From: a bacterium
GTDB taxonomy: Bacteria > Patescibacteriota > Saccharimonadia > Saccharimonadales > DATKHC01
DNA length: 64,000 bases
Assembly (NCBI GenBank): GCA_021781215.1
Contig: JAJXXC010000002.1
Location: 16,274 to 80,273, forward strand
Reading direction: 5' to 3'
Part shown: in pieces, positions 420 to 50,036 of the stretch
Layout of the letters: every line of letters starts with the position of its first letter
Numbering within the stretch: the stretch's first letter is position 1
Notes under the pieces: generated by a model
Database searches by the model: none
What the model was told of the DNA's origin: nothing
Seen by the model: only the letters and a program-made list of their open reading frames with translations
Program-made: the position numbers and the translations under genes

Positions 420-2440
<2,021 letters not shown>

Positions 2441-3205: not shown

Positions 3206-4675
<1,470 letters not shown>

Positions 4676-4771
4676 AAAAAGAAAACTGACGTTGTATTGC
4701 ACTACATAAATTTTTAAAGTTCAATATCGGTTCAAGAGACACCTCAATTAGAGCCCCAAAAGACTCCGATA

Positions 4772-7356: not shown

Positions 7357-7357
7357 A

Positions 7358-9349
<1,992 letters not shown>

Positions 9350-9440
9350 TTAATTCTTACATCTATTATACATGATTTAACTACCTCTTCCAACCCTAAC
9401 TGAATAGATAGATAATACGCCTACAGCTGTTTACCAATAG

Positions 9441-33720: not shown

Positions 33721-33728
33721 AAATTAGA

Positions 33729-34391
33729 TTAATTTTGTGTATACGCCTGGGTGCTAAAACTATAAATTGCACAAAACGGTCCAATTAAAACCGTTGGCCT
33801 GCATATCCATTGACTGCCATTATTATTTTGCACTAGATTAGACTGATTCCCGTATAAGATTTCTATATTTACAGAATAAAGCCCACTGGAAACATTAGAT
33901 AACATGCTCTGATTATCATATACTGTATGATTTAGAATTTCCACATTATTGGGCGATAGCAAGGATTGAGTATCGGCACTAAGTCCAGAATTGTTAATAA
34001 ATTGCTGTGGTGAAAAACAATTTTGGCTGCCCAATACTCCCTGCAGAGATACAATCGGTATTTTATATATATTCCCTCCCGGAATATAGAAATATTCATT
34101 CTGAGTTGTGCAAAAATAATAATAAATAGTTGCCTGAGATCCGGTCTTTGTTACTTGAGCAGACTGATCAGTAGTTATTGAAGCAGTTGTGCTAAATTCA
34201 ATATCTCTTGTCATAGTATCCGAAAGGCTAACCGCAATATTCTGAGTTTGACCTCTAATAAAACCATTCGTATAGGTTTTAGATATCTGGATCACTCCAT
34301 AGGTAACAATAAATAGTACAGCCGTAAATACTGATGTAGCTATCAATAGTTCTATTATCGTAAAACCATTTTGATCAAGCTTCTTAATCAT
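33729..34391 (-). CDS. Type IV minor pilin/pseudopilin (class III signal peptide)
   Basis: N-terminus MIKKLDQNG|FTIIELLIATSVFTAVLFIV: G at -1, F at +1, E at +5. Confidence 0.65.
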   Translation of the reverse strand: MIKKLDQNGFTIIELLIATSVFTAVLFIVTYGVIQISKTYTNGFIRGQTQNIAVSLSDTMTRDIEFSTTASITTDQSAQVTKTGSQATIYYYFCTTQNEYFYIPGGNIYKIPIVSLQGVLGSQNCFSPQQFINNSGLSADTQSLLSPNNVEILNHTVYDNQSMLSNVSSGLYSVNIEILYGNQSNLVQNNNGSQWICRPTVLIGPFCAIYSFSTQAYTQN

Positions 34392-34858
34392 ATTGAAGCC
34401 TGATATGAAATACTTAAATTATCGCAATTAAATAGACTTTGACTATTGCAGGCGTGATTAACTGGATTAATACTCAAATTGCGCCAGTAAACGTTAATGG
34501 TAAATGTATAGTCGTAGGTTGTGGGCGGATTAGGAGGTGTGGGGGCTTGAAATTCATACATAAAAGCACCTTTTGTTTGTAGGCTAGAAGTAGCCTGATA
34601 ATTATTGCTACTATTTAAATAGAAATTTCCACCGGATGGATTAATAGAGGTGGGGTTGGAGGCTAATAGCTGTTTTAGAGATTCAATTTGACCAGAAGCA
34701 ATATTTAAAGCCGTTACTCTATTTTCTGAGTTTATAATATTATCTAATGAATATTGAGCCGATTGGTATGCGCCTGTTAAAACAAACGCCAAAATCACCA
34801 TTGCAATCAATACTTCGACAATAGTATCACCATTTTTATTTAATTTAAGTATTCTCAT
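34388..34858 (-). CDS. Type IV pilin-like protein with an atypical processing site
   Basis: MRILKLNKNG|DTIVEVLIAMVILAFVL: E at +5 is conserved but +1 is Asp rather than Phe/Met. 4-nt overlap with the downstream pilin gene. Confidence 0.5.
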   Translation of the reverse strand: MRILKLNKNGDTIVEVLIAMVILAFVLTGAYQSAQYSLDNIINSENRVTALNIASGQIESLKQLLASNPTSINPSGGNFYLNSSNNYQATSSLQTKGAFMYEFQAPTPPNPPTTYDYTFTINVYWRNLSINPVNHACNSQSLFNCDNLSISYQASI

Positions 34859-34869
34859 AGATTAATCCT

Positions 34870-35712
34870 CTAACAACCAGTATAACTATAATTTAATAAT
34901 AGGTTTGTTGCATCAGACTTTCCCTCAAAAGAAATCTGAACAAATTCTCTAGGCTCAAGTGGAGAGCTCAGGCAAACTACAACTGAGCCCACGGGATTGA
35001 TATTGTAGCCACCTACTACTCCGTTAACTACGCTGTCTGCATTTATATAGTTTATGGCATTAGAAGAAGCAGAGGCTTCAGTGGGTATGATAAAAAGATT
35101 GTTTCCGAGAGAACTATTGTCGGTTAAATTTGAGGTTTGAATATTATAAAAACCTACAATATCATTTACGATACCTACAGGATTTCCTGAATAGGTGACT
35201 TTAGAGACAGTAAATTGATCAGGTAATCCTACTACTTTAACTCCTTGGGGAGGAAAACTGCCCGATATCCCAGATCCAACACTAGCGAATACTTTCGCAG
35301 ACCGTGGAAAGGGTGGTGGTGGGTTAAGTGATGTTCCGCCAAATTGATTACCAACCAAACTATAAACATAATAAAAAGACGACCTTGTAGCTAATGGGTT
35401 AAATTGGATGGCTTTACCCACATAAACACAGCCCAAATTCGTGCCTTGGCTTTGAGCGACTGGTGAAAAATATGGTGAGCCCGAAACATCCTTACATGAC
35501 ACGGGACTATTAGTTGTGTAGAGACCATTTTGAACATCAGTGCTAAGCGACTGTAGCTCAGTATATATTTGTCTGGCGCCTGTATCAAATTCGGTTTGTT
35601 TCTGGTCACCGTTCATTGCCATAGCGGCAGCAACAAATAAAAATGAGGCTAGCCCAAGTACAATTAACACTTCTATTATAGTAAAACCGCGTGGTAAATG
35701 ACCACTATTCAT
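34870..35712 (-). CDS. Type IV pilin-like protein (minor pilin)
   Basis: MNSGHLPRG|FTIIEVLIVLGLASFLFVAAAMA. Confidence 0.65.
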   Translation of the reverse strand: MNSGHLPRGFTIIEVLIVLGLASFLFVAAAMAMNGDQKQTEFDTGARQIYTELQSLSTDVQNGLYTTNSPVSCKDVSGSPYFSPVAQSQGTNLGCVYVGKAIQFNPLATRSSFYYVYSLVGNQFGGTSLNPPPPFPRSAKVFASVGSGISGSFPPQGVKVVGLPDQFTVSKVTYSGNPVGIVNDIVGFYNIQTSNLTDNSSLGNNLFIIPTEASASSNAINYINADSVVNGVVGGYNINPVGSVVVCLSSPLEPREFVQISFEGKSDATNLLLNYSYTGC

Positions 35713-35758
35713 GAACTAAATTATAGCATAAGCGTAGTGCTATTACCTGATAAAGAGC

Positions 35759-36574
35759 CTAGCCAATTAATCCGGTATACCAATTCAAGATTTGTGACCC
35801 AAAGAAAAAACACAAGAACGTACTAAAAATTAATAACGGCCCAAAGGCTATGGTCATATTAGCTTTTAATTTCTTCGTTATTAACAAAAACCCCGACATT
35901 AAGCTGCCTGCTAATGAGGCCAAAAAAAGCATTAAAACAACTTCTAGCGGACCGCCCAATATAATGCCGAGTGCGATACATAGCTTAACGTCTCCCCCGC
36001 CTATCCATTTACCATTTGAAACCTGAAAAATTAAATAAAATATACCTGCCGAAAATAGCACTCCATATAATCGAGCCAATAGATAAGCTGAGGTTTGATC
36101 ATATTTAATATAGTAGATAGTAGCAAAGACTAGGGATAGAAAGATGGCACTATAAACTAAATTATTTGGCAGAATCTTATATTTAAAATCGTAGATTGCT
36201 AAACCTACTAGTATTACTAAAATTACCAACCAAAGCATCAACAATATATAGTCCCATAAGTTAAAGCTATATGGCCAGTAAAAGTATGATAGAGAGAATA
36301 GCACTCCGGTGATTAACTCAACTATAGGATATTGAAGACTTATGGCTTTGTGACAATATCTGCACTTGCCTCTTAATAATAACCAGCTAAAGATTGGGAA
36401 TAAGTCGACCGGCGACAATATATGCTTACATTTTGGGCACATTGACCTTCCCTTAAAAAATGAGTGTTTTTTGCTGACTTTTTTTGAAGAACTATATTTT
36501 AAGTGTAGCCTCCATACAAAAGAATTAATGAAACTGCCAAATATAAGACCGAGTACCAGAAAGATTATTGTCAT
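35759..36574 (-). CDS. pilD: Prepilin peptidase (A24 family)
   Basis: N-terminal TM, the cytoplasmic tetracysteine CPKCKHIL...CRYCHKAIS, and multiple TM helices with the conserved Asp-bearing GGGDVKL. Confidence 0.8.
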   Translation of the reverse strand: MTIIFLVLGLIFGSFINSFVWRLHLKYSSSKKVSKKHSFFKGRSMCPKCKHILSPVDLFPIFSWLLLRGKCRYCHKAISLQYPIVELITGVLFSLSYFYWPYSFNLWDYILLMLWLVILVILVGLAIYDFKYKILPNNLVYSAIFLSLVFATIYYIKYDQTSAYLLARLYGVLFSAGIFYLIFQVSNGKWIGGGDVKLCIALGIILGGPLEVVLMLFLASLAGSLMSGFLLITKKLKANMTIAFGPLLIFSTFLCFFFGSQILNWYTGLIG

Positions 36575-36643
36575 AATTTTTACTACTTACAATAGTAACA
36601 TCTTATATAGATAGAAAATAAGCCTGATATTGTTTACTGGTTT

Positions 36644-37255
36644 CTACTGAGCCTGCAAACAGTTCCAGTCAGGGGCACCAGATGTCTGTGAAGTATACAA
36701 TATAGCAATATTAGACTGGCTGCCTGCTGTAAGAACGAGTGATGGACCGCTTAGGGTTGCTGTGTTGGATGCGTTTTGGCAAGTGACTCCCGGATCAATA
36801 ACTACTACCCAAGGAAATGGTGAATAACTAGTAATGGCGCTGGCGAGCAATAAGGTGCCTGCTCCCGATACGCTTTCACTGCCCAAATACCATCCAGATG
36901 AAATAGTAGACGATGTTGATGCTGCGCCATTTAAATTAGCACTGTTAAAAGCAGTGGGTGGTGGTGGTTGCGTACCCGGTTCAACTAATTTAGAAAGTGC
37001 TCCGACGTTATTATATATATCTGAAAGCTGTGTATTCGAAGTTGGTACTATTCCATTATTATTTGAGGACCAAGTGCTAACAGCCGCTGCAATATGAGAA
37101 GCATCTGTCTTGGCGGCAGTGTTGGCTTGTGACCTTTGAAGGCCTGGAACAGCTAGCAATACTACAGCCATAATTAATCCGGCAATAGCCAGTACAATCA
37201 ATACCTCTATGATGGTAAAACCACTATTGTCATTACTTTTTAATATTTTATTCAT
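36644..37255 (-). CDS. pilA: Type IV major pilin (PilA-like)
   Basis: MNKILKSNDNSG|FTIIEVLIVLAIAGLIMAVVLLAVPGL: a canonical class III signal peptide and alpha1 helix. 203 aa, located between pilC and pilD. Confidence 0.75.
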   Translation of the reverse strand: MNKILKSNDNSGFTIIEVLIVLAIAGLIMAVVLLAVPGLQRSQANTAAKTDASHIAAAVSTWSSNNNGIVPTSNTQLSDIYNNVGALSKLVEPGTQPPPPTAFNSANLNGAASTSSTISSGWYLGSESVSGAGTLLLASAITSYSPFPWVVVIDPGVTCQNASNTATLSGPSLVLTAGSQSNIAILYTSQTSGAPDWNCLQAQ

Positions 37256-37349
37256 TGTTTTGGTGCCCCTATTATATATGATTAAAATTATATCGCTTAT
37301 GGCTATTGTATGCTAGTTAGAAATAGATAACAATACGAATATTCTTACC

Positions 37350-38576
37350 TTAAGTTCCTCCAGTAAAACTACTATTGCCCGCAAGGCTATAAATCGGAAG
37401 CAGTACTGCTGCAACAATGATAAAAGCAAAAACTCCTAAAACAATCATCAGAACTGGTTCAATTAATGTCGATATATTTTTGACCTCATCATCTACTTCT
37501 TTTTCGTAATAGATGGCCAGTCTCTCTAGCATTTGATCAATGGTTCCAGAGGCTTCACCAATTTTTAACATACTTGGCACCAATGGCAAAAAATTCTTAT
37601 TGTTTTCAATAGTTTCAGACAATGACTTGCCGAGTTTAACTTTTTTTATAGATTCAACGATTGTGCCCTCTATGTGGACATTGTTAATTGCCTTAGATGT
37701 AATTTCCAGAACCTGAATTAAGGGTAAGCCGCTACTAACTAATGTTGCTGCTGTTCTAGAAAATCTTGCCATATATAGTTTCATAAACAAAGGACCGATT
37801 GGCCAAATATTCATCTTCAAATTATCGAGGGTTTCCGTACCTACTTTAGTTTTTCTCCATGAATTTATAAATACAATGATCACAACTAAAACTAGAATGA
37901 TTAACCACCAAAAACCAATTATAAAATGAGATACGCTAAGCAAAACTCTAGTTAAGATAGGTAAACTACTGCCACTTGCAAGCCCATTGTATAAAGTCCC
38001 TACTGCAGGCAAAACTTTAACCACCATAAATGACATAACACCAAGCATGACAATTAATACGATAATTGGATAAGTAAACGCGCTTCTAATTTTTTTATTT
38101 ACATCAGCATCTTTCTCTAATTGATCAGCTAATCTTTCCAAAGATTTATCAAGCGACCCAGAGATTTCACCCGCGGCTATCAAATTTAAATATATAACTC
38201 CAAATACCTTTGGGTATGCTGATAGCGCCTGAGAAAGCGATTTACCAGATTTAATTGCATCAATTACCGACCGAATAATATCTTTTAGGTTTTTAGCTTG
38301 TGTCTGGTCCGCAGTATTAACTAGTGCCTGCATCAAGGGCAAACCGGCATTAATTAAAGTAGATAATTGTCGAGTAAAAAGTATAGTGTCTTTTTGTTTA
38401 ACTTTTGAGCTCGTAAAAGAAAAAGCTGAAAATGGATTCTTTAATTTAACGTCTATTGGATTTAGCCCCTGTTTTCTAATGGTTTCGGTAGCCTCTTTAA
38501 TGCTCCCGGCTATAAGATCTGAGCTTACTCTTTTACCAGTAGCAGCTTTTATTGCTGAGAATTTATATATAGGCAT
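37350..38576 (-). CDS. pilC: Type IV pilus platform protein PilC (GspF family)
   Basis: 408 aa, two T2SSF repeats, three TM segments. Confidence 0.85.
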   Translation of the reverse strand: MPIYKFSAIKAATGKRVSSDLIAGSIKEATETIRKQGLNPIDVKLKNPFSAFSFTSSKVKQKDTILFTRQLSTLINAGLPLMQALVNTADQTQAKNLKDIIRSVIDAIKSGKSLSQALSAYPKVFGVIYLNLIAAGEISGSLDKSLERLADQLEKDADVNKKIRSAFTYPIIVLIVMLGVMSFMVVKVLPAVGTLYNGLASGSSLPILTRVLLSVSHFIIGFWWLIILVLVVIIVFINSWRKTKVGTETLDNLKMNIWPIGPLFMKLYMARFSRTAATLVSSGLPLIQVLEITSKAINNVHIEGTIVESIKKVKLGKSLSETIENNKNFLPLVPSMLKIGEASGTIDQMLERLAIYYEKEVDDEVKNISTLIEPVLMIVLGVFAFIIVAAVLLPIYSLAGNSSFTGGT

Positions 38577-39646
38577 TATTCTCTCACCATTCTCTCTAAT
38601 TCATCAGCATCAACCGCAAAGCTCATGGCGTTATCAAAGGTTATAGTCCCTTTTTGGACTAGATTTGCTAAGGTTCTATCCATGGCCTGCATACCAAATT
38701 GAGCACCTGTTTGAATTACTGCCTCTAACTGATGGCTTTTGCCTTCTCTGATTATATTTCTTACAGCCGCATTGGCAATTAAAATTTCAGCGGCGGCAAT
38801 TCTTCCACCCCCAGTGGTCGGAATCAACCTTTGGGAACAAATTGCCATTAAAATACTCGATAGCTGTGTACGAATTTGATTTTGTTGGTGTGGAGGAAAT
38901 ACGTCAATCATTCTATCAATACTTTGTGATGCTGAATTGGTATGAAGTGTTGCAAACACTAAATGACCAGTCTCGGCGATAGTAATTGCGGCGGCAATTG
39001 TTTCAAGATCCCTCATTTCACCAATTAAGACTACGTCGGGGTCTTCTCGCAAAACAGACCTTAGTGCTACCCCAAAAGAAAAGGTGTCATAATGCACTTC
39101 TCTCTGAGCTACTACGGATCTAATTGACTTATGCATGTATTCAATTGGGTCTTCAATAGTAATAATATGAGCAGCTTTTTCACTATTAATTTTGTGAATT
39201 ATAGATGCCAAAGTAGTTGATTTACCCGAGCCAGTTGGACCCGTAATTAATACTAAGCCCCGCGGATAATTTCCAAACTCGTTAACAATCGCCGGTAATC
39301 CTAGCTCCTCAACAGTAAAAATCTTGGTTGGGATAAGCCTTAGGGCCATCGCCAAGTTGCCACTTTCATGAAATGAGTTAACTCTGAATCGAGCCTGATC
39401 ACCAAAAGCAAAACTGAAATCAAACTCCTTATCTTTTAGAAGAATTTGTTTCTGATCATCGTCCAATATTGAAAATATCAGTAGTTCGACATCAGCCTCA
39501 GTTAATGGTTTATACCCAGCAACCGGAGCCAATACTCCGTCAACACGAATCATTGGTGGCGTTGCCACTTGAATATGAAGATCTGACGCATTGCGTTTAA
39601 TAACTTCACTGAGTAGATTTTCGATTTTTAATTCTTGGTTCATCAT
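38576..39646 (-). CDS. pilT: Twitching-motility retraction ATPase PilT
   Basis: 356 aa. Walker A GPTGSGKSTT, Asp box, His box, and the PilT-signature AVRNIIREGK (AIRNLIRE). Confidence 0.85.
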   Translation of the reverse strand: MMNQELKIENLLSEVIKRNASDLHIQVATPPMIRVDGVLAPVAGYKPLTEADVELLIFSILDDDQKQILLKDKEFDFSFAFGDQARFRVNSFHESGNLAMALRLIPTKIFTVEELGLPAIVNEFGNYPRGLVLITGPTGSGKSTTLASIIHKINSEKAAHIITIEDPIEYMHKSIRSVVAQREVHYDTFSFGVALRSVLREDPDVVLIGEMRDLETIAAAITIAETGHLVFATLHTNSASQSIDRMIDVFPPHQQNQIRTQLSSILMAICSQRLIPTTGGGRIAAAEILIANAAVRNIIREGKSHQLEAVIQTGAQFGMQAMDRTLANLVQKGTITFDNAMSFAVDADELERMVRE

Positions 39647-39658
39647 ATTATCTATAAT

Positions 39659-41446
39659 TTATGCGTTGTCTGTAGCTGCGACTCTATCAACTTCCTGTAG
39701 AGTTGTCTGTCCAGCTAAGGCTCTTAAATAACCGTCCTGCCTTAATTCAATCATCCCCTGTGATATGGCAACTTTTTGGATTTCTTCACTGGTTACACGT
39801 TTCATTATTAGATTTTGAATTTCCTGTGTTACCTCAAATACTTCGAACAAACCCAATCTTCCGCGATATCCGTTCGGATAACCAGGGCTTTCGATTCCCT
39901 TATATAAAGTATAAGCATTTTGGTTAGCTAATGGCAAATTATCATAGCCTAAATCAGCCGAGACTCTAGCTACATCAGCGGGGGTTTTGGGTAGTAAATT
40001 CCCTACTGTCTTGTGAATAGCATCAGTCTCGATACTGCTGGATTGGTAAGCCGTTTTGTCATTACTAATTCTTCTAATTAATCTCTGTCCAATTACCGTT
40101 CTAACCGTACTGGCAATTAAGAATGGCTCAACTTCCATATCTAGTAATCGGGGCAATATTCCAGCCGCCGAGTTAGTATGGAGCGTAGATAGCACTAAAT
40201 GCCCGGTTAAGGACGCCTGCACAGCTAAGGCTGCGGTTTCACCATCTCGTATCTCACCAACCATTACCACGTTTGGGTCTTGTCTTAATATTGATCTAAG
40301 CCCGGTTGAAAATGTTAGACCTATATCAGGATTGACCTGTATCTGATTAATCCCGTCCATTTTATACTCAACCGGATCCTCCAAGGTCACAATATTTATC
40401 GAATCACTCTTAATTTCTTGAATTAAGGCGTATAGAGTGGTCGATTTACCCGATCCAGTGGGACCACTGGTTAAGATCATGCCGCTAGATTGTTTCAAAG
40501 ATAATTGGATAGCTCTAAGCGATCTACCGGTAAAGCCCATTTGATCGAGCTTAAGATTAATTCCGGTTTTATCGAGTAGCCTAATTACAACCTGCTCCCC
40601 CCACACAACTGGCGCTATGGCAATTCTAAGGTCGATTTCCTTATCTGGTAATTTAAAGGTAAATTGTCCGTCTTGAGGTATTCTATGCTCATCAATTTTT
40701 AAGTTAGACAGAATCTTAATCCTAGAGATTAGAGCGGCTTCAGTATTTTTTGGTAATATCATCAATTCACGCAAAATACCGTCAATTCGACATCTAATTT
40801 TCAAATTATACTCTAAGGGCTCAACATGAATATCACTGGCCCCATTATCTGCAGCATAGGTCAAAATAGTAGTCAGAGTTTTTGAGATTGGAGAATCTTG
40901 ATCGTTGGTAATTGAGATTTTTTTGCTACTTATTAGAGAGTCACCGGCATCAGATTCCTTGTTTTGTTCTTGATCTATATTTTTACCTATATTTTTATCT
41001 ATGAACGTTTGGTATTGTTTCAAGACTCTTTTTATACCGGTTTCACTAGCTGAATAGACTTTAAGCGGAACCCTAATCTTATTAGATAAAAAATCTACTA
41101 CCTGAACATTATCAGCATCCAACATTGCTACGACTAGATACCCCTGGCTCTTACCAAGAGGTACGGCCATGTATTTTTCAGCAGTTTCTTTAGGTAGCAT
41201 AGCTAAAAATTCAGGATCAACGTAGGCATTACTCAAATCTACATAGGGTAGTTTATTTATCTTGGCCAAAATTTTAGTTACGGCCTCTTCGGATATTTTT
41301 TGTTTATTTATTAAGTACGCCAGTATTGGGGTTTTAGCTTTTTCGGCTTCAAGTTTTAAGCTACTGAATTCGGTTGCAGAAAAATATCCATCTTGGATAA
41401 ACGTTTCTTCTAGTCGACTTTGGTTAACTGGTGAGAGTAGGCTCAT
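39659..41446 (-). CDS. pilB: Type IV pilus extension ATPase PilB (GspE family)
   Basis: 595 aa. N-terminal GSPII_E_N domain and C-terminal ATPase (SGPTGSGKSTTLYA, VGEIRD, HT...STLHTNSA). Confidence 0.85.
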   Translation of the reverse strand: MSLLSPVNQSRLEETFIQDGYFSATEFSSLKLEAEKAKTPILAYLINKQKISEEAVTKILAKINKLPYVDLSNAYVDPEFLAMLPKETAEKYMAVPLGKSQGYLVVAMLDADNVQVVDFLSNKIRVPLKVYSASETGIKRVLKQYQTFIDKNIGKNIDQEQNKESDAGDSLISSKKISITNDQDSPISKTLTTILTYAADNGASDIHVEPLEYNLKIRCRIDGILRELMILPKNTEAALISRIKILSNLKIDEHRIPQDGQFTFKLPDKEIDLRIAIAPVVWGEQVVIRLLDKTGINLKLDQMGFTGRSLRAIQLSLKQSSGMILTSGPTGSGKSTTLYALIQEIKSDSINIVTLEDPVEYKMDGINQIQVNPDIGLTFSTGLRSILRQDPNVVMVGEIRDGETAALAVQASLTGHLVLSTLHTNSAAGILPRLLDMEVEPFLIASTVRTVIGQRLIRRISNDKTAYQSSSIETDAIHKTVGNLLPKTPADVARVSADLGYDNLPLANQNAYTLYKGIESPGYPNGYRGRLGLFEVFEVTQEIQNLIMKRVTSEEIQKVAISQGMIELRQDGYLRALAGQTTLQEVDRVAATDNA

Positions 41447-41466
41447 ATTACTAAAATCTTTGCTTA

Positions 41467-41709
41467 TTAATGAGTGAATGGAGAATTGTTTGCGTTATTA
41501 CCAATTTTAACTAGTAGAGTTGGGTCAATAGAATTTGAGTTTAAATATTGATTACCTGGTAACTTAAAAGTGGTATTAATCGTGTTAACGACCGTAACTT
41601 CTTGCTGAGTAGAAATAAAATGCGACAGAAGTGCCGAGGTAACAATTATAGCCAAAACTGCACTCAAAAACATTGTGCTAATAATTAACGCTAAGTCATT
41701 TTTTTTCAT
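41467..41709 (-). CDS. Small single-pass membrane protein in the PilP position
   Basis: 80 aa, one TM (LALIISTMFLSAVLAIIVTSALL) plus a short extracytoplasmic tail. 4-nt overlap with upstream pilO-like gene. Confidence 0.35.
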   Translation of the reverse strand: MKKNDLALIISTMFLSAVLAIIVTSALLSHFISTQQEVTVVNTINTTFKLPGNQYLNSNSIDPTLLVKIGNNANNSPFTH

Positions 41710-42407
41710 TGTACAACCTCCGTGCTGGTATAGATTCCCGATGAAGGATTGTAATAGTAGGTTTGGGCTGTAATCGAAGCAGTTAAATCAGCGTCGGTAC
41801 CTGTCAATTGAATGGTCAATATATCAATTGGTGAAACCGACCTATTAATAACGGCTAAGAAATTCTGAATATTAGTATAGCTCCCTTGTACTGAAAACGA
41901 TATTGGAATAGGCACGGGCTGAGCAGACTGGACTAAAGATAGTGAATTATCGGTACCGGTCAAACTTTCGACAGTGATGCCCGGCATAGTAAACAATGCC
42001 TGCAGACTAGATATTATTGCCGGGAAGTCGTATGACTGAGGCAGTGCATCTAGAATAATTTTAGCGTTATTCCCAGAAGTTGAGCCATTACCGGTACTTG
42101 AACCACCAATTATATTGACAGGCTGATTAATAAAATTAGTGTAGGCACTTTGTACATTATTGGCAACCTGCTGATCCTGGACAATATTATTAATTGAAGT
42201 CCTTTGAGCCGATAATACTCGGCCTTGATAAATATAAAAACCAAGCAAAGTTTTGCTAGTAAAAAGTCCAAATATTAATAAAAATGAAGCAATTGCCAGA
42301 GAGGTCACAGCATTAGCTTTGGCTTTATCGATTTTAATCTTAGTATTTAGTTTAGCTTTCATCTTTTTACCCGTTTGACGTATTAAATAATGCCGCTGGT
42401 TGATCAA
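41706..42407 (-). CDS. pilO: PilO-like pilus alignment protein (bitopic); the true start is probably the internal Met at ~42362
   Basis: Basic cytoplasmic N-terminus, one TM (AVTSLAIASFLLIFGLFTS), then an extracytoplasmic domain. Sits between pilN and pilB. Confidence 0.5.
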   Translation of the reverse strand: MINQRHYLIRQTGKKMKAKLNTKIKIDKAKANAVTSLAIASFLLIFGLFTSKTLLGFYIYQGRVLSAQRTSINNIVQDQQVANNVQSAYTNFINQPVNIIGGSSTGNGSTSGNNAKIILDALPQSYDFPAIISSLQALFTMPGITVESLTGTDNSLSLVQSAQPVPIPISFSVQGSYTNIQNFLAVINRSVSPIDILTIQLTGTDADLTASITAQTYYYNPSSGIYTSTEVVQ

Positions 42408-43047
42408 CTGCAGACCTTGTAGTAATTTTATTCGGAACTATTAACTGAACCCCGGATACACTTGTAGCAAAGATTTGAGGAGAGAAAACAGCCGTAACTG
42501 AAAAATTTTGACCAGTAGTTGAGGCTGGAGAATAGGAATAGCTCGATAAAACAACTTTGCTAAACGCCAGTTGATTCGAGGTAGTACTACTGGTGGTATA
42601 TTCACAAAACTTTAGTGTATCGACGAAAGTATTTATTGAATCTATAGTATTGGCGCTACCGGAAAGACTAATCGTATTAGTGGTAAAGTTTAAACTTAGG
42701 GTCTTTATAGACACACTAGCTGGTGTTATGAGTGATAAATATTGGGATAGGCGAGTAACATCTGGCCTTGAATTATATAGTATCGGCAACGCCTTAATCG
42801 TATCGTTAATTTTAAGAATTGAATTTAAACCGGACACCTTATTTAAAGTAGCTATATTATTAGTTATCTGCTCCCTATTTTTAGATATGTTATTCCCTTG
42901 GACAATCTTAACTTCGATGAATAATCCGATCATTATTGCAATCATTAAGACAGAGCCTAAGAATGTGACTCTAGTAATGAGATTATAAATCTTTTTAGCT
43001 CTTATTTCGTACAAGACGGAATCTGGTAGTAAATTAAGTTGAATCAT
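42367..43047 (-). CDS. pilN: PilN-like pilus alignment protein
   Basis: N-terminal MIQLNLLPDS (the INLLP motif), one TM, and an extracytoplasmic domain. Confidence 0.6.
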   Translation of the reverse strand: MIQLNLLPDSVLYEIRAKKIYNLITRVTFLGSVLMIAIMIGLFIEVKIVQGNNISKNREQITNNIATLNKVSGLNSILKINDTIKALPILYNSRPDVTRLSQYLSLITPASVSIKTLSLNFTTNTISLSGSANTIDSINTFVDTLKFCEYTTSSTTSNQLAFSKVVLSSYSYSPASTTGQNFSVTAVFSPQIFATSVSGVQLIVPNKITTRSAVDQPAALFNTSNG

Positions 43048-44078
43048 TCTATTCTCTCCGCCAACCCTACTGCAACACCAAAATAATCTGATATCGCTAA
43101 TAATTCATTCTGTCGCTTTATATCATAAGCTACATTTCTCCAGGCATTACCTATTTCAACATCTATACCTGTATGATTAGCAACTGCTAGAGGAAATTCT
43201 GGAATGATTGCCGCTGATCCAGCAACAATTATCTTACTAAGTTTAATATTGTATTTATCAGTGAAAAATTTAATACTCATATCAATTTCGGCCAAGAGCG
43301 AATTGACTGGATTAATAATCGCTTGATAAACCTGACCCTGAGCTCTGGTTTTATTTAATCCAAATTTAAATACCACTTCTTCAGCTTGTTCTCTCTTGAT
43401 ATTTAGGTCTTGGGTAGCAGCGCGAATAAGAGTCTCGGTGCCATAATTGATTGATCTCGTCAGCATTGCCGCATTATTCATACTAATTACCAAATCGGAG
43501 TTATAGCGCCCTAGATCAAAAACCATCTGCGGGCTAGTGTTGCTAGGATCCAATAAAGCACGGGTTAGGGCTAAGTTATCTGGTTCTAACGAAATAACTT
43601 TCAAACCAATCGACTCAAGCATATCTAATCTTTCTTTGGCTACGCTATTTAAGACACTGCTAATGAGCAGCTTTACCTTAGCAGGGTTCGTAGGAGAGTC
43701 ACCAATAATTGACCAATCGACTTTTGATTCATCAATTGGGGTCGGAATAAAAGAACTAATTTGAAATTTAATACTTTTAATCATTTCCTTGCGTGGTAGT
43801 TTATCTACCTCGACTACAGTAGTAAAAACTTTTTGCGATGGCAGACCAACAGCAACATTCTTGGTAGTAATTTTAGATTTAGTAATTAACTGTTTTAAGG
43901 CATTGGTAACCATGATGTTTGATTTTGTATCAACTGCCGGAGTCGTCGTGTCTAGCGGTGCAAAACCATATTTAACTAAGTTTTTTACTGGTCCACTGCC
44001 CTGTAATTGGACTAGTCTGATAGAAGAAGTACCAATATCTAGCCCAAAGAAATCAGTAACCCCATGTAAAATGCTCAT
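43044..44078 (-). CDS. pilM: Actin-like pilus assembly ATPase PilM
   Basis: FFGLDIGTSSIRLVQL (the actin/HSP70 phosphate-1 motif). 344 aa. Confidence 0.8.
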   Translation of the reverse strand: MSILHGVTDFFGLDIGTSSIRLVQLQGSGPVKNLVKYGFAPLDTTTPAVDTKSNIMVTNALKQLITKSKITTKNVAVGLPSQKVFTTVVEVDKLPRKEMIKSIKFQISSFIPTPIDESKVDWSIIGDSPTNPAKVKLLISSVLNSVAKERLDMLESIGLKVISLEPDNLALTRALLDPSNTSPQMVFDLGRYNSDLVISMNNAAMLTRSINYGTETLIRAATQDLNIKREQAEEVVFKFGLNKTRAQGQVYQAIINPVNSLLAEIDMSIKFFTDKYNIKLSKIIVAGSAAIIPEFPLAVANHTGIDVEIGNAWRNVAYDIKRQNELLAISDYFGVAVGLAERIE

Positions 44079-44139: not shown

Positions 44140-47100
44140 TTAAATGACTGGAGATAATTCAGTTAAAGCCTGATAATCTGGATTTACAGGCAAAGAACCC
44201 TGGACTTGAGATAACCAAACCTCCGGCCCATAATTGAAGGTTTCTGCTGCGCCAGTAGATCCATACTGTCCGGGTAGGCCGCCATAAACTCTACCGAACT
44301 TTATCTGATTAGCAACAAGGGATCCGTTAACTGTTAGTTGGTTATTACATCCGGCAATTAACGCTTGATCAGCTTGATTCCCAGAAAATGAATTACCGGT
44401 ACCGGCGTTTGCGCAAGTAAAGATCGTACCATTTGCCGAATAAACCCCATCAATACTAGTAGCGGCACTATCTATATAGATATTAGAATTAGAAATGACG
44501 TAGAGTAGTGGAATATCTGCAGCCGAATTTAGACCCGAGCCATTATTATAGATACTTATACTTTCGCTAATCTCAGCATTGCCATTAATATAAACTACGA
44601 CTTTAGATCCAGCCGGTGGATTGCCGCTAATTTTTATCGGTCCATTAAGGCTGCAGTAATTAGTCGTATCAATTAGTTTACAGGCACTGTTACCAGTAGC
44701 AGTCGATAGATCAAACCCACCAGATGCTGGAGAGACAGAGAAACCGACTAGATTATTCTTTGTTGAATAATAATCGAGGTTACATACTCCGTTGGCTGAG
44801 CCAAAATTACCGCCATATGGAGCGTTAACAGTGTTAGCAAAAGTTAATGCGTCTCCTCCACTACCAGTGGATAAACCATTTATTACACTAGGAGCGAGTG
44901 CCGACAAATTATCCGATGCTCCGATCCATGAAGAACCACCAACATTTGAAGCAAATATATTAGCAGAATAGTTTGGTGAGCAAAATCCGTTACTATTAGC
45001 CGAGCCACTGCCGGCTATAATATCTCCGCCGCTAACTGTAAAATATGGTTGTGAATCACAAATTGTAGCCTGATTCTGGTAAGCGGTTTTCCATACATTA
45101 AGGGCAGACACTGACGCATTATATAAATTAAGATCTTGATTATAAAAACTATTTGAGTTATAGGTTGGATACCATGGGGCCAATAAAGGATAGTTCATAG
45201 TCTGATAATAAGTATTATCACTTAGATTCAACCATGGCTTGTAATAAGGCTGCATGTCATTCCAGGCAGTAATTGCTGCAGTCCTAGCTGCAGCTTCTTG
45301 CGCTCGGGCTGGTGGCATAGCTATATTATAAGCATTTCGTGCTGCAATGACTGCTGCCTTATAATTAGCGAGGTTTGTCTGATAAGCTAATTCGCCAGCG
45401 GTATTTGACGCAGTGATAATCGCATTAGCAGCCGCATTACTGGTGGTCACAGGGGTAACAACATAGGTGGTGGTGGGTGGCACCCAAATATACCCACTGT
45501 GTCGATTGTGATTCTTAAGGCTGCCACTTGTCCAGTATTTCCAGTAGCCAGGCGTAGTGACAGGAGTGATGGTATAAGTGGTAGTGGTGGGGGGAAGTAG
45601 CGCTGTGGGAACAAATGCTGCTGGGGGCCCGCTATTTACAACAGCGTCATATGCGGCCTGAATACTTGCAACGTTAGCTACGGCATTATTATAGGCATTG
45701 TAGGCATTAATATACGTGCTTAAAGGGCCTTGTAGCGCCACGGCCGCATTATCAGTCGCAGTTTTATAGTGTTGATAGCCATCCCAAAAAGTACTCCCCT
45801 GATAACTTCCCTGGTCATAGTTAAACCAATTATTGTAGGCAGGATTATATACATTTTTCTGAGCTGCTTCTTGCGCAAGTCCTGCGGCTGTACAAGCTAA
45901 AGACGTAGAGCCAGACCCCGAAGGGCTGCCACCCCATACTATTGAAGTCGGTGAGCAAGTTATGTTTGTGCCATTACCATTTGATGAAGTTACATAGGTT
46001 AGTGATGCTGAATAGACAATTCCCCCTGACGCACTCATGCTAGGAGAATCTACGATCGTTATCGGGTTAGAGTTTGAGTTGCCCTGATTCCACATATAGC
46101 CCGGCGGCCCGAGACTTACGCCCACCGGCCCCTGGAGTACTTGGGGGGCAATATTCTCTCCTGGCCCATTACCGTTAACTATCTTTTGAACTACTACATC
46201 CTTTACTCTTATTGCAGTTGGATTTGCAGTTGGTAAATGCCAATTAATATATACAGAAGTTTGTTGATTCAAGCTTGGCGAATAATTAGTTGCTACCATT
46301 AGGCAAGAAGCGACACAAATACCTACACAAGCTATCTGTGGAATCCTCCCCTGGGGATATGATGAAATATTACCACATACTATATCTAGTTTATTATAAA
46401 AACCATTAGTGGGTATTGAACCACACTTACCGGCCCATTGTGGTCCCACTAGCCCCACCATTGTTCGCGGAGTCGTATCGGCCGCAGCTCTTCCAATATC
46501 ATAAGACCCAGAGGTGATATCCATGGCAGTATTATAGGTGTCGGTCATGTTCTTTTGCTGACACACCTGATTATTATTATCATAACTTACTACTAAATCA
46601 GTTATAGGCGATATTACGTTAAAAAGTGTTACGTATGATCCATTATAGTGAAAATAATTAGTTGAAACATTATCGCCTTTTAAGATAGTCAACATATCGA
46701 ATGCCGCACCAATATTGTCCAATGAAGCTATAGAGTTTGGATTTGTTAAGCCTGTATTTTCAGTATATCCACAGCTACTTGCATTGACGCCATAATAGTA
46801 CGCGAATAATGATGCCAATAATATATATGCATCACTAGTTTTATTTGTAATGCCAATGTTTGCTTTAGCCGCTTGATAGGCGGCCGCCCCTCCGTTAAAG
46901 CCACTGCCATAGAAGTTATTTCCATTAGCTGCTGCAACTACACAAAAATGAACGCCCCACTGCACCAGCGCATCACAAGTACTGGTCATACATATGTTTG
47001 ACCTATTTGTGTAAAATTCTTGCCCGGATGTAATTGACGCGGCGCTAGCATATGGTGCGAAAATGAGTTGAGATAAAATTGTAGCGATAAAAACTATTAC

Positions 47101-47142
47101 TACTGATATGGTTTTTAAATTAAAACTTCGGAGCATTACCAC
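44140..47142 (-). CDS. Giant (1000 aa) secreted low-complexity protein, immediately upstream of pilM
   Basis: Signal peptide MVMLRSFNLKTISVVIVFIATILSQLIFAPYASA|AS. The mature protein is dominated by N/S/G/T/A/Y with scattered Cys. No enzymatic motifs were found. Confidence 0.55.
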   Translation of the reverse strand: MVMLRSFNLKTISVVIVFIATILSQLIFAPYASAASITSGQEFYTNRSNICMTSTCDALVQWGVHFCVVAAANGNNFYGSGFNGGAAAYQAAKANIGITNKTSDAYILLASLFAYYYGVNASSCGYTENTGLTNPNSIASLDNIGAAFDMLTILKGDNVSTNYFHYNGSYVTLFNVISPITDLVVSYDNNNQVCQQKNMTDTYNTAMDITSGSYDIGRAAADTTPRTMVGLVGPQWAGKCGSIPTNGFYNKLDIVCGNISSYPQGRIPQIACVGICVASCLMVATNYSPSLNQQTSVYINWHLPTANPTAIRVKDVVVQKIVNGNGPGENIAPQVLQGPVGVSLGPPGYMWNQGNSNSNPITIVDSPSMSASGGIVYSASLTYVTSSNGNGTNITCSPTSIVWGGSPSGSGSTSLACTAAGLAQEAAQKNVYNPAYNNWFNYDQGSYQGSTFWDGYQHYKTATDNAAVALQGPLSTYINAYNAYNNAVANVASIQAAYDAVVNSGPPAAFVPTALLPPTTTTYTITPVTTPGYWKYWTSGSLKNHNRHSGYIWVPPTTTYVVTPVTTSNAAANAIITASNTAGELAYQTNLANYKAAVIAARNAYNIAMPPARAQEAAARTAAITAWNDMQPYYKPWLNLSDNTYYQTMNYPLLAPWYPTYNSNSFYNQDLNLYNASVSALNVWKTAYQNQATICDSQPYFTVSGGDIIAGSGSANSNGFCSPNYSANIFASNVGGSSWIGASDNLSALAPSVINGLSTGSGGDALTFANTVNAPYGGNFGSANGVCNLDYYSTKNNLVGFSVSPASGGFDLSTATGNSACKLIDTTNYCSLNGPIKISGNPPAGSKVVVYINGNAEISESISIYNNGSGLNSAADIPLLYVISNSNIYIDSAATSIDGVYSANGTIFTCANAGTGNSFSGNQADQALIAGCNNQLTVNGSLVANQIKFGRVYGGLPGQYGSTGAAETFNYGPEVWLSQVQGSLPVNPDYQALTELSPVI

Positions 47143-47202
47143 TATTCTACAACATATTAGTTTTTCCCGTAATTTAAATTATAACGGATACATGTATGCA
47201 CG

Positions 47203-48924
47203 CTATAGGGGGTGAGCAGTTACTTTGCTATTATTATAATCAGCTACCCAGAGGTTAGTACCGTCATATAGTATCGATGTACTCGTACTTGGCAGTAACC
47301 TATAATTAAACTTAGCTATTAGTCTAGTGCCGTTAGTAGTGTACTCTGATGCCGATGCTACTGGATAAACACTTGTCACAAATAAATCGCTTCCAGTAAA
47401 AATTATTTGGTCTGGACTAATAACGTTTATCTCTCTAACGTATGCTCCGTCTGCTGCATTAAATTCAATAGCCTTATTGTTGTCGGTGCTAGTAATCCAT
47501 ACGTAACCACTATGATAAGAAACACAATTTATTCCTGAACCATATTGTGGTTGAGTCTGCCTCAAATAAGCCCCCGTGTTAATACTATACTGATATGCCG
47601 AATTACTAATCTGGTCTGACACCCAAATATAATTTCCATCGACTGCTAAACAAGTGGGATTGCCGAGAGCATGTGATGAGTTGCCCCTTATAGCCCTCAC
47701 AATGTTTCCACTAGTAGCGTTAAACTCAGATAGAAATGATCCGGGGCCTGCTGATGAACCAGTATTATTATTAGCCACCCAAATATGCGTTCCATCAAAA
47801 GCTAGGGCTGCTGGAGCATATATATCCGTACCAGTAATCGTCTGTTTCAGAGATCCGGTAGATGCATAAAACTGTGTTAGGGAATTACCCGAACGATTAG
47901 CCACCCAAATATGCGTTCCATCAAAAGCTAGGGCGTCGGGACAGCTAAACCCATAAGAGAGATTAGAAGGATTAGACGTGTTAGTTAAGGTCATAATAAT
48001 CTGTTTAGTATTCTTATCAATCTCAGTGACTGCATTTCCTTGACAACTAGCAACCCAAATATCTGAACCAGCCTGAACAAATGCATCAGGACCAGCTGGT
48101 ACGGATATCGTATTACCGGTACTTACTGGAGGCGGGGTTGTTGTGGTGGGTGGGGGCGTTGTGGTTGTGGTAGTAGGAACCGTAGATGTTGGATAAACAA
48201 TCACTGTCAAAACTTTAGTAGTTGCACTAACATCACCGTTCACGGTTAGTGTAAAGACATAATTAATTTGAGATGGGGACGAGTTAGCTGGCATTACTAC
48301 GGGGACTGAGATTGATCCTGAACCACATGGAACAATGTTGCTACTAGTGCCTTGAATAGCTGGGCTTGCTGTAATACTACAACCAATTTCATTAGCTACC
48401 TGTCCGGTTAAAGTTACGTTACCACCGGCATTAGGTAATCCACTAACTGAAGCTGTGAAGCTTTTTATAACAGGTCTAGGCGCAGCAACCACAGTCACTC
48501 TTTTTAAAGGCGCAACAGCTACTCCCTTACCTTTTCTGCCAGCAACAATCAGTTTAAAAGTATATACAATATTTGAACCAGAAATATTTTTAGGCAAGCT
48601 AGGTGTGTATATTACCACCCCATCTCTGCAGGCTATATTCCTATTTACTCCAGCCACAGCTGGAGAAACTCTAAAAATACATTTAGTAGCATTTTTAACA
48701 TCTGCCGAAAGTCTTATACGACCACCTGGGTAGTTTAGAGTAACTGGGGCAACAACAAAATTACTTACTGCCGGTTTAGTCGAGATAGCTGCAGATACTC
48801 CACCGACAGAGGCTAGTGATGCGACAAGTAGCAGCAGGGCAACCGAAGTCACTCTCAAGTCTCTGAACATCGCTAACTTACGCTTGTTCTTATATTTTAA
48901 GTATAATAGTGTCTTTTCATCCAT
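47203..48924 (-). CDS. Secreted Ig-like + 7-bladed beta-propeller protein (NHL/YVTN-type repeats); the start is probably the internal Met at ~48870
   Basis: Signal peptide MFRDLRVTSVALLLLVASLASVGGVSAA. Two ~100-aa Ig-like modules and a TTTTTPPPTTTTPPP linker. Seven repeats of G-T/S-x-I/L-W-V-A/S-N/D (DIWVASCQG, THIWVANRSG, THIWVANNNTG, NYIWVSDQIS, GYVWITSTDN, SDLFVTSVYP, TNLWVADYNN). Confidence 0.6.
   Translation of the reverse strand: MDEKTLLYLKYKNKRKLAMFRDLRVTSVALLLLVASLASVGGVSAAISTKPAVSNFVVAPVTLNYPGGRIRLSADVKNATKCIFRVSPAVAGVNRNIACRDGVVIYTPSLPKNISGSNIVYTFKLIVAGRKGKGVAVAPLKRVTVVAAPRPVIKSFTASVSGLPNAGGNVTLTGQVANEIGCSITASPAIQGTSSNIVPCGSGSISVPVVMPANSSPSQINYVFTLTVNGDVSATTKVLTVIVYPTSTVPTTTTTTPPPTTTTPPPVSTGNTISVPAGPDAFVQAGSDIWVASCQGNAVTEIDKNTKQIIMTLTNTSNPSNLSYGFSCPDALAFDGTHIWVANRSGNSLTQFYASTGSLKQTITGTDIYAPAALAFDGTHIWVANNNTGSSAGPGSFLSEFNATSGNIVRAIRGNSSHALGNPTCLAVDGNYIWVSDQISNSAYQYSINTGAYLRQTQPQYGSGINCVSYHSGYVWITSTDNNKAIEFNAADGAYVREINVISPDQIIFTGSDLFVTSVYPVASASEYTTNGTRLIAKFNYRLLPSTSTSILYDGTNLWVADYNNSKVTAHPL
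47771..47934. repeat. 38-nt perfect intragenic direct repeat (two copies, 126 nt apart) inside the beta-propeller gene
   Basis: TTAGCCACCCAAATATGCGTTCCATCAAAAGCTAGGGC at 47771-47808 and again at 47897-47934. The spacing equals one 42-codon propeller blade (FDGTHIWVAN twice). Confidence 0.6.
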
Positions 48925-49115
48925 CAGATTACCGCAGACCTACTTAATCGCTTTTACAGGTATATATTAACATAATATTAAATAATTTCAATGATATTAT
49001 TATCTCTATTTAAAATACTAGGTATGAGCTCATTAGAAATTGGCATAGTTACGAGACAGGCTAACCTAGTTAGATTAATCCCGTTCTTGCAGAGATAAAT
49101 TCGAAAATATTAACA

Positions 49116-50036
49116 TTAGAGCGCTTCGGGGCTCGGATTTAATTTTTCATGGACTAATTTATTCAACTCTGCGGTATTTCCAAATCTTGAAGAAATAACC
49201 GCCAGTCTTTCTACAACCCCAAACTCACTAAGCATCTTATCCGTTATTTTATCTAGCTTTGTAAATTCAACTCCCCATTTACGGTAGTCAACGCCTGCGT
49301 GTATATATCTATTATCCTTTATCTTATCCTTTGTGCTCCTAGAAAAACCATTTGGGATTTTACGATAAATTATCACTTCGACTCCCACCCTAATGCTTGA
49401 CTTAGTGCGCGGATTAATCACATATTCACCACCCTCATTCGAGTAAGAGTCTATCAAGCTAGCTTGGACATATTTATCATTAGCATTTTCCTTAGATATT
49501 TCATCAAGTGCATCTAGCTCCTTATCCCAACCCGTCATCGAAATCAACTCACCGGTTTGCGCCGATAATAACAATACTGTGCTCAATTTACGATTCTGGC
49601 TGGTATCAGGCGTTAAGACTGAGCGTCCGATTAAATAAAAAGGACGATATTTTTCATAGCTAGCCATAGTTGAAGTTGACATCAATAGCTCACTTGGCGT
49701 TGGCTGAGTAGGAGTAGTAGGTAACCAAATAACACTAGAAACTACTGCTAACGCGTCTTTACCGGTCTTAACTCTCATGCTCTCACCACTCTCGGAACGT
49801 GGAAGATGTTCACCAAATTTTTGTATAAATTCTAAATTTAATTTAGACCTAGCCTCTTTAGACTTTTCGGACTGTACTCTTTCAAGCATAACTGAGTCTA
49901 GTGCCTCGGCTAACGCCTGTTGATGGAAAACTCCTAAATCAATCTCCCTACCAGCTAGGTCAATTATGGTATCATTCAGTTCGGTATCTTTAAGTGACTC
50001 TGGCAATATATTTGGTTTTTCTTGTGAATGGTTCAT
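49116..50036 (-). CDS. Hypothetical protein
   Basis: 306 aa ORF, no recognisable motifs. Confidence 0.4.
   Translation of the reverse strand: MNHSQEKPNILPESLKDTELNDTIIDLAGREIDLGVFHQQALAEALDSVMLERVQSEKSKEARSKLNLEFIQKFGEHLPRSESGESMRVKTGKDALAVVSSVIWLPTTPTQPTPSELLMSTSTMASYEKYRPFYLIGRSVLTPDTSQNRKLSTVLLLSAQTGELISMTGWDKELDALDEISKENANDKYVQASLIDSYSNEGGEYVINPRTKSSIRVGVEVIIYRKIPNGFSRSTKDKIKDNRYIHAGVDYRKWGVEFTKLDKITDKMLSEFGVVERLAVISSRFGNTAELNKLVHEKLNPSPEAL

Follow-up and report, generated by a model that had tools for sequence, protein, structure and literature searches.

We analyzed a 64,000-nt window of the bacterial contig JAJXXC010000002.1 (GenBank assembly GCA_021781215.1; Saccharimonadales, a minute soil-dwelling parasite), focusing on an open reading frame (ORF) that heads a type IV pilus (T4P) cluster on the minus strand. 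The ORF encodes a previously unannotated secreted surface protein combining immunoglobulin (Ig)-like modules with a seven-bladed β-propeller, and its family takes part in modular exchange with Lsr2-linked cassettes found in genomes of the host phylum. This exchange, the most interesting property of the family, was absent from the claims of an earlier sequence-only reading of the window, which had likened the protein to the pilus protein PilY1 and credited it with a freshly duplicated blade. We see about an even chance that the protein acts as a secreted, exchangeable binding head in epibiont-host contact, made together with the pilus and being neither a pilin nor a PilY1 homolog.

Host recognition by ultrasmall Patescibacteria is largely unknown, and the sole adhesin candidates tested are pilins of oral strains (PMC11623550). 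For environmental Saccharimonadales, the Ig-propeller family is a concrete candidate for this role that is not a pilin and has a confident structural model. Its Lsr2-linked copies constitute a testable case of gene flow over the epibiont-host interface, and the foreign islands harboring swapped heads offer a sequence-based route to pair uncultured epibionts with their likely hosts in peat metagenomes. Should the protein be an ordinary secreted propeller with no special role, the finding would reduce to a correctly described domain architecture.

Architecture, export and fold of the protein

The boundaries assigned to the gene by the sequence-only reading were exact (Table 1). Its 573-aa product has 135 homologs at E ≤ 1e-3, about 29 of which span most of the protein; one of the homologs bears the NCBI organism name Candidatus Saccharimonadales. 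An AlphaFold2 (AF2) model built on a 25-sequence alignment reached a mean predicted local distance difference test score (pLDDT) of 84.7. The model features two β-sandwich (Ig-like) domains (approximately residues 50-145 and 150-243), a linker of sequence VPTTTTTTPPPTTTTPPPV disordered at residues 252-269, and 28 strands arranged in seven blades (residues 272-572, pLDDT mostly >85). The blades extend over residues ~279-314, 329-364, 371-412, 423-456, 465-500, 504-538 and 551-572, the last being completed by strand 272-274, which supplies its fourth strand. The sequence contains seven tandem repeats with the core [ILV][WF][VI][AST], namely SDIWVAS, THIWVAN (twice), NYIWVSD, GYVWITS, SDLFVTS and TNLWVAD, so that all seven repeats with an I-W-V-A-type core announced by the sequence-only reading were located.

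Database searches agree with this model. A Pfam scan at E ≤ 1 returned only NHL, SGL, Lactonase and DUF3439, of which NHL (PF01436) alone exceeded its curated cutoff (25.3 bits for the whole protein against a cutoff of 20, E = 1.5e-5), no single repeat passing alone; NCBIfam and PHROGs gave no match. The 50 best Foldseek matches in the PDB were generic propellers, including YncE, Lp49, NHL domains (Brat/Mei-P26), BamB, WD40 proteins and an archaeal S-layer YVTN protein, with YncE among the best superpositions on the propeller (target-normalized TM-score of 0.75). When the family profile was searched against PDB sequences, the best match was 1L0Q, an archaeal S-layer protein with YVTN and PKD domains (E = 1e-7). 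The predicted structure thus confirms a seven-bladed fold of the YVTN/NHL class, and the proposed succession of secretion signal, two Ig-like modules, Thr/Pro linker and seven-bladed propeller is borne out by AF2, Pfam, Foldseek and the PDB profile search alike. Conservation is unevenly distributed over the propeller, blades 1-2 having a major-residue frequency of 0.73-0.74 vs 0.50-0.60 in blades 3-7.

The Ig-like modules matched no Pfam family at E ≤ 10 and no PDB sequence. At E ≤ 1e-3 a module of this type recurs across 384 representative proteins, the longest of 3141 aa, with as many as 11 copies per tandem array; some of these proteins also carry PD40/NHL propellers or DUF11. The module is a common stalk unit of a large, unannotated repeat family. 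The second module is missing in five one-module homologs (P0020, P0022, P0025, P0027 and P0029), and the length of the linker varies from 0 to ~30 aa among homologs.

Regarding export, 19-residue segments with a Kyte-Doolittle hydropathy >1.6 are confined to the N-terminal segment. AxA-like sites lie 5-6 residues ahead of a conserved KPxVS motif, which starts the first domain, in all aligned homologs, and several homologs begin at the position aligned with M19. Motif searches found neither a lipobox nor a pilin G↓FTLIE leader, and no C-terminal LPXTG sorting signal or C-terminal hydrophobic segment, the sole LPxxG-like string being internal (LPNAG, residue 163). Given the conserved AxA-type sites and the lack of lipobox, pilin leader and sorting signal, the Sec signal is probably cleaved, leaving a mature protein that would have no membrane or wall anchor. 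An invariant Cys pair is present in each of the three domains (Table 1), with alignment columns occupied in 23/23 sequences for the first Ig-like module and in 20/20 and 20/21 for the second, and half of the family members have a fourth pair; one invariant pair per domain fits an extracytoplasmic protein. The GAST content of the protein (39%) falls in the range reported for exposed pilins (PMC11623550).

Table 1. Coordinates of the features discussed, in window positions.
Feature	Position	Strand	Basis and remarks
Coding sequence, Ig-Ig-linker-propeller protein	47203..48924	-	ORF list; stop codon 47203-47205
N-terminal export signal, aa 1-46	48787..48924	-	Basic n-region, hydrophobic segment aa ~22-45, VSA↓A site
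Ig-like module 1, aa 49-146	48487..48780	-	AF2 strands, pLDDT ~90; Cys82-Cys99
Ig-like module 2, aa 147-244	48193..48486	-	AF2; Cys182-Cys200
Thr/Pro-rich flexible linker, aa 245-271	48112..48192	-	pLDDT <50 at residues 252-269
Seven-bladed four-stranded β-propeller, aa 272-573	47206..48111	-	AF2 DSSP strands; Cys294-Cys328
Putative conversion tract, blade 2 copy, likely donor (ALAFDGTHIWVAN)	47896..47934	-	39/39 nt identical; peptide conserved family-wide
Putative conversion tract, blade 3 copy, likely recipient	47770..47808	-	Blade 3 variable in homologs
Nonsense polymorphism, codon 454, TTG to TAG in L086	47564	-	Contig comparison
Secreted 1000-aa protein rich in Asn/Ser/Gly/Tyr	44140..47142	-	C-terminal domain of ~300 aa conserved
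Type IV pilus cluster	32467..44078	-	ORF translations
Promoter-like site TTGAAA-16-TAATAT with TG	48964..48991	-	Consensus scan; 5' of start codon

Position at the head of the pilus cluster

As proposed by the sequence-only reading, the propeller gene heads the pilus cluster. It is followed, after a gap of 60 nt, by a 1000-aa ORF on the same strand and, after another 61 nt, by a complete T4P cluster entirely encoded on the minus strand, in the order pilM, pilN, pilO, a small ORF, pilB, pilT, pilC, the major pilin gene, pilD and four minor-pilin-like genes; the 280-aa minor-pilin-like ORF at 34870-35712 harbors an N_methyl motif (Pfam). This order agrees with that described for "T4P locus one" of Nanosynbacter lyticus TM7x (PMC11623550).

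The succession YchF(-), propeller gene, ~1000-aa gene, pilM and onward is kept in the window and in the loci L080, L081/L082, L083, L087, L110 and L120, while L084 displays only the propeller gene and the start of the ~1000-aa gene. Strand, order and the ~60-nt spacing to the 1000-aa gene are constant in all eight independent low-GC loci. The syntenic loci have a GC content of 0.36-0.39 (~0.38 for the window), encode propeller proteins sharing 36-67% identity with that of the window, have all genes on one strand with intergenic gaps of ~55-65 nt, and carry PilM_2, T2SSE and T2SSF among their Pfam annotations. No terminator-like site was detected in the two intergenic gaps downstream of the propeller gene, in a promoter/terminator scan whose site counts equaled the shuffled expectation and thus carry no statistical weight. 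The propeller gene is probably co-transcribed with the ~1000-aa gene and pilM.

L080, L081, L083, L087, L110 and L120 each encode an ortholog of the 1000-aa protein in the interval from the propeller gene to pilM, with 54-57% identity in a C-terminal domain marked by the motifs ...PLLYVISNxNIYIDxxxTSIDGVY...CNNxLTVNGSLVAxxIKFxR.... Pfam, NCBIfam and PHROGs returned only DUF7305 for this protein, below cutoff (E = 3.4e-4), and its AF2 model, built on a five-sequence alignment, was unusable (pLDDT of 31.9). In a distant pilus locus (L129), two paralogs of this C-terminal domain are encoded upstream of pilM (5431-7407 and 8001-10292); since it is kept in this locus, which has no propeller gene, the 1000-aa family is the more widely conserved neighbor of pilM. 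The propeller gene, at the cluster's head, is an addition specific to its clade.

On its 5' side, the propeller gene has different neighbors in different genomes: an orphan ORF in the window, PIN, rhodanese and CHAP-ricin genes in L081, and another ORF in L087. The CHAP peptidase of L081 (8737-9744; also present in L082) carries Ricin-B lectin domains, and its gene lies directly 5' of the propeller gene in the opposite orientation. It may be a host-wall-targeting enzyme residing in this variable region.

Relatives beside Lsr2 genes and exchange of propeller heads

Scanning metagenomes from JGI samples, taken as peat-bog, with the family-specific blade-1 motif [DYN][IL]WVASCx[GA]N retrieved 27 loci. 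A scan of genome contigs yielded no ortholog, its output being dominated by propeller-only relatives of acidimicrobial (Acidimicrobiia) and acidobacterial (Acidobacteriota) origin. Most of the 27 loci are not pilus loci and lie on contigs with a GC content of 0.48-0.56. There, one to three propeller paralogs with two, one or no Ig modules adjoin a gene for Lsr2, an actinobacterial protein (L085, L088, L090, L091 and L103-L126), in the vicinity of transposase-like helix-turn-helix genes, PIN/VapC genes and Prok-E2/Multi-ubiq genes. A regulator and a histidine kinase flanking one of these loci (L088) match exactly proteins of an NCBI metagenome-assembled genome (MAG) of Acidimicrobiales. The Lsr2 proteins of the cassettes form a tight group (75-93% identity) with at most 56% identity to ordinary Lsr2 of named Actinomycetota.

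The composition of these loci is discordant. The propeller genes found beside Lsr2 have a GC content at third codon positions (GC3) of 0.25-0.49 (0.25-0.41 for the propeller domain alone) vs 0.55-0.72 in their flanks, Lsr2 itself resembling its surroundings (~0.68), and in Saccharimonadales the GC3 of the propeller gene (0.22-0.30) equals that of its neighbors. The propeller genes are therefore compositionally foreign to these Actinomycetota-type contigs, where they form low-GC islands. The junctions between low-GC and high-GC segments were reproduced at 99.5-100% identity in independent assemblies, so that chimeric assembly is rejected as the reason for finding low-GC genes in high-GC contigs. 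A phage receptor-binding protein, or a phage-derived Lsr2 cassette, was also considered and rejected: there was no PHROG match, and IMG/VR contained only propeller-only relatives at 25-29%.

In neighbor-joining trees of the propeller domain, copies from pilus and Lsr2 contexts interleave, with several mixed sister pairs at 95-100% bootstrap. Within the family, two proteins (P0015 and P0016) match at 280 of their first 281 residues, a stretch running from the signal through the two Ig modules to the linker, yet have propellers that belong to different lineages. Conversely, the Lsr2-context protein of L118 and the pilus-context protein of L080 share 83% identity in the propeller vs 51% in the N-terminal part. 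Such mosaics, seen in L107-L108 and L118-L119, indicate that whole propeller heads have been replaced, apparently by recombination at the Thr/Pro linker. We infer that alleles, or heads alone, moved between Saccharimonadales and Acidimicrobiales-type genomes; gene composition suggests that transfer proceeded mainly from the low-GC epibiont to the actinobacterial side. The domain family itself is likely old in soil Actinomycetota, its modular Ig-linker-propeller version having presumably reached fixation in one Saccharimonadales clade, at the pilus locus.

Propeller-only relatives in Acidimicrobiaceae are found at 30-41% identity and occur as tandem paralogs with near-perfect 7 x 42-aa repeats, and near-identical blade repeats are typical of multivalent binders. 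In one Acidimicrobiaceae MAG (L002, 9851-13686), three genes lie in tandem, and the propeller encoded by each consists of seven 42-aa repeats (GGSYGFxxPxxIAFDGTHIWVTNxxGNSVTEFNASNGAWVQTLS) that barely differ from one another, which suggests concerted evolution within and between paralogs.

A 39-nt repeat shared by two blades

The perfect DNA repeat that the sequence-only reading had placed in adjacent blades is real, although it measures 39 nt instead of 38. Its two copies (Table 1) are in frame, encode the same 13 residues in blade 2 (aa 331-343) and blade 3 (aa 373-385), and are spaced by 126 nt, or 42 aa. Given identical peptides and the codon usage of the window, the probability that all 13 codons agree is 6.5e-6; in two homologs with nearly the same pair of peptides (11/13 aa in P0006, 12/13 aa in P0009), only five codons agree. 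Beyond the 39-nt core the blades have diverged, the full 126-nt units sharing 52% nucleotide identity with the core included. Because all 25 aligned homologs possess seven repeats and the blades differ outside the core, we read the identity as a short, lineage-specific gene conversion and not as a new blade. Blade 2 is the likely donor, since its motif is conserved family-wide while blade 3 is variable.

Of the two origins initially offered for the repeat, gene conversion is therefore supported by codon identity and constant blade number, and the freshly duplicated blade is not retained. Duplication of a whole blade is excluded by the restriction of the identity to 39 nt, and an extra or variable blade by the seven repeats of all 25 homologs, in which no blade-sized insertion or deletion was found. 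The repeat-number variation envisaged between strains did not materialize either: a second assembly of the strain, from another metagenome (L086; ENA ERZ27236866, 2042 nt), shows no difference in repeat structure and matches window positions 46934-48975 except for one base. This substitution creates the nonsense codon listed in Table 1, so that the L086 gene call ends at 453 aa and the propeller is cut after blade 4; it is either a genuine loss-of-function allele or an assembly error.

Function, origin and alternative explanations

In the reading that we favor, the protein would be exported via Sec and freed of its signal, giving a disulfide-stabilized extracellular protein devoid of membrane or wall anchor. 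Its mature form would comprise two Ig-like spacers, a flexible Thr/Pro linker and a YVTN/NHL propeller closed by its own N-terminal strand. Its gene is the first of a T4P-1-type cluster in one low-GC, peat-bog clade of the Saccharimonadales (Patescibacteria), and the protein would be produced alongside the pilus. The propeller would serve as a ligand-binding head, adhesin or lectin-like, contacting the surface of the actinobacterial host, one putative face, on blades 1-2, being conserved and the other, on blades 3-7, variable. This head is an exchangeable cassette, in which recombination at the linker swaps propellers, a 39-nt patch was converted between blades 2 and 3 in this lineage, and alleles appear to have crossed phyla.

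Binding is favored over catalysis because no enzyme family matches above threshold and because symmetric, repeat-perfect relatives exist; because the head can be exchanged while the stalk stays constant, conservation being concentrated in blades 1-2 and variation in blades 3-7; and because TM7x sets a precedent, a propeller-bearing pilus protein being required there for host binding. We nevertheless weighed a secreted propeller enzyme of the SGL, lactonase or Vgb-lyase type, acting on a small molecule or a host envelope polymer. Weak Pfam matches to SGL (E = 0.0023) and to Lactonase, 7-bladed (E = 0.021) would fit such an activity, as would the annotation of one relative as a streptogramin lyase by JGI and the conservation of the blade 5 motif CVSYHSGY[IV]W and of E487. 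Both matches, however, fall under their curated cutoffs (18.0 vs 26.3 bits for SGL, 14.5 vs 21.7 bits for Lactonase) and NCBIfam returned none, the invariant columns of the alignment are mainly Gly, Trp, Cys and Pro with no evident His/Glu/Asp set of metal ligands, and near-identical-blade relatives together with wholesale head swapping suit binders better, which makes an enzyme unlikely.

A PilY1-type adhesin, with the propeller borne at the pilus tip via minor pilins and regulating or priming assembly, would fit a seven-bladed propeller at a T4P locus, PilY1 and TM7x PilX2 both being propeller-bearing T4P proteins. The kinship with PilY1 suggested by the sequence-only reading is not supported: the Pfam scan of the 573-aa protein gave no match to PilY1/PilC (PF05567) at E ≤ 1, a profile search of all PDB sequences returned no PilY1 chain at E ≤ 1, and PilY1 was not among the 50 best Foldseek matches in the PDB. 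A regular-expression search, confined to the motif, found no EF-hand-like Ca-site D-x-[DN]-x-[DN]-(G)-x-x-[DE] in the 573 aa, and the first 80 aa contain no pilin motif G[FMLIV][TSA][LIV][ILV]E, with no N_methyl Pfam match and no N-terminal pilin helix. Judged by its sequence, the propeller protein is neither a PilY1 homolog nor a pilin. In addition, its gene lies ~11 kb from the minor-pilin genes (32467-35712), which occupy the opposite end of the cluster, full-length homologs occur in genomes with no pilus locus, and the gene is missing from the distant T4P locus. The non-pilin leader and the homologs found without any pilus locus make a location at the pilus tip less likely, and we regard the PilY1-type scenario as highly doubtful.

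The adjacency to the pilus might also merely reflect overall synteny, the protein being a general envelope or S-layer-associated structural component, or cargo of a variable region. Arguments for this include its nearest solved relative by sequence, the archaeal S-layer YVTN+PKD protein, the synteny of the entire region, the PIN, rhodanese, CHAP-ricin and orphan ORFs housed between YchF and pilM, the homologs located away from pili and the existence of a nonsense allele. Yet strand, order and spacing are kept in 8/8 low-GC loci, whereas the remaining cargo differs from locus to locus and is confined to the upstream side of the gene, and no terminator-like site separates the propeller gene from the cluster (within the limits of the scan given above); we judge this explanation improbable, to about the same degree as an enzyme.

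Several observations weigh against a binding head coupled to the pilus. The neighborhood FtsK-S6-SSB-S18-EFP-FtsJ-YchF is syntenic throughout these genomes, so conserved adjacency is weaker evidence than usual, and the interval from YchF to pilM is variable and also accommodates unrelated cargo. The distant locus L129 has no Ig-propeller gene, and homologs persist in genomes devoid of the pilus cluster, so the pilus is not needed for the protein to work. The protein has no anchor that would account for an association with the cell or the pilus; one population carries a premature stop at codon 454; and the sub-threshold SGL and lactonase matches leave room for an enzymatic role. Finally, the tree was computed by neighbor joining only, and the actinobacterial assignment relies on Lsr2, GC content and a single NCBI MAG whose proteins match exactly.

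Concerning origin, the family could instead be native to Actinomycetota, from which Saccharimonadales would repeatedly borrow genes as host mimicry, the low GC of the actinobacterial copies being maintained, for example by Lsr2-based regulation. The outgroup of propeller-only relatives is indeed mostly from Acidimicrobiia; the protein has a Thr/Pro linker, and such linkers are typical of actinobacterial secreted proteins; cassette Lsr2 proteins have diverged to 50-93% identity while still adjacent, implying long residence; and some high-GC paralogs have a GC3 of 0.50-0.62. Against this, the propeller domains on the Lsr2 side have a Saccharimonadales-like GC3 of 0.25-0.41 amid flanks of 0.55-0.72, the copies in Saccharimonadales are no richer in GC than the genes flanking them, and the deep branches with conserved synteny all belong to Saccharimonadales, so that we give this scenario little credence. 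A more adventurous, and distinctly unlikely, extension of transfer from epibiont to host is that actinobacterial hosts repeatedly captured recognition heads of their epibionts, keeping them as AT-rich genes beside a dedicated Lsr2 silencer and secreting them as decoys or receptor masks that counter epibiont attachment; head swapping in both partners would then be the trace of an arms race.

Comparison with known systems

The best functional precedent comes from PilX2 of TM7x, a minor pilin of the Saccharibacteria T4P-2 with a heptabladed RCC1 propeller that is needed for efficient host binding (PMC11623550). Both are Saccharibacteria proteins encoded at a pilus locus and ending in a seven-bladed propeller. 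PilX2, which belongs to T4P-2, combines RCC1 repeats with a pilin-type N-terminal helix, whereas the window protein starts with a Sec-type leader that ends in an AxA-type site, its repeats are of the YVTN/NHL type, and its gene lies upstream of pilM in a T4P-1-type locus. The C-terminal domain of PilY1/PilC (Pseudomonas aeruginosa PilY1, PDB 3HX6, PF05567) is likewise a seven-bladed propeller from a T4P locus with a proposed adhesive role. It differs from the window protein in having no detectable sequence relation to it and in following a large vWA-like region in place of the Ig-like N-terminal part; the window gene lies outside the minor-pilin operon, and its product is about half the size of PilY1 with no Ca-binding loop motif.

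Other secreted propellers share parts of the architecture. The surface-layer protein of Methanosarcina mazei (1L0Q) also joins PKD domains, which are Ig-like, to a seven-bladed YVTN propeller at the cell surface, but it is an archaeal S-layer component with the reversed order, propeller first, and the Ig-like modules of the window protein match neither PKD nor any other Pfam family. Leptospira Lp49 (PDB 3BWS), a secreted protein with an Ig-like domain and a seven-bladed propeller, and Escherichia coli YncE (PDB 3VGZ), a secreted seven-bladed YVTN propeller, share only 11-15% identity with the window protein, are not linked to pili and possess neither the Thr/Pro linker nor the Cys294-Cys328 pair.

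On the host side, EsrA of Schaalia odontolytica has an Ig-repeat stalk with a terminal β-propeller that senses epibionts (PMC13622651). It resembles the window protein by its Sec signal, its Ig-like stalk and a diversifying surface propeller at the interface between Saccharibacteria and Actinobacteria, a likeness by description that carries no claim of homology. EsrA differs by its 14 Ig-like repeats, an N-terminal WD40 propeller and a MoxR/vWA/kinase signaling cluster.

Other features of the window

Between YchF and the propeller gene, a 306-aa ORF (49116-50036) matched nothing in Pfam or NCBIfam, and the syntenic loci have no equivalent ORF there, the interval varying between genomes. The window also carries an rRNA operon, with the 16S gene at 3205-4677 and two tRNAs upstream of the 23S gene. 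An end-to-end match to the bacterial large-subunit rRNA model (2925 positions) aligns to only 2108 nt of the window (329-2436); either the 23S gene there is apparently far below the usual length, or sizable portions of it are skipped by the alignment.

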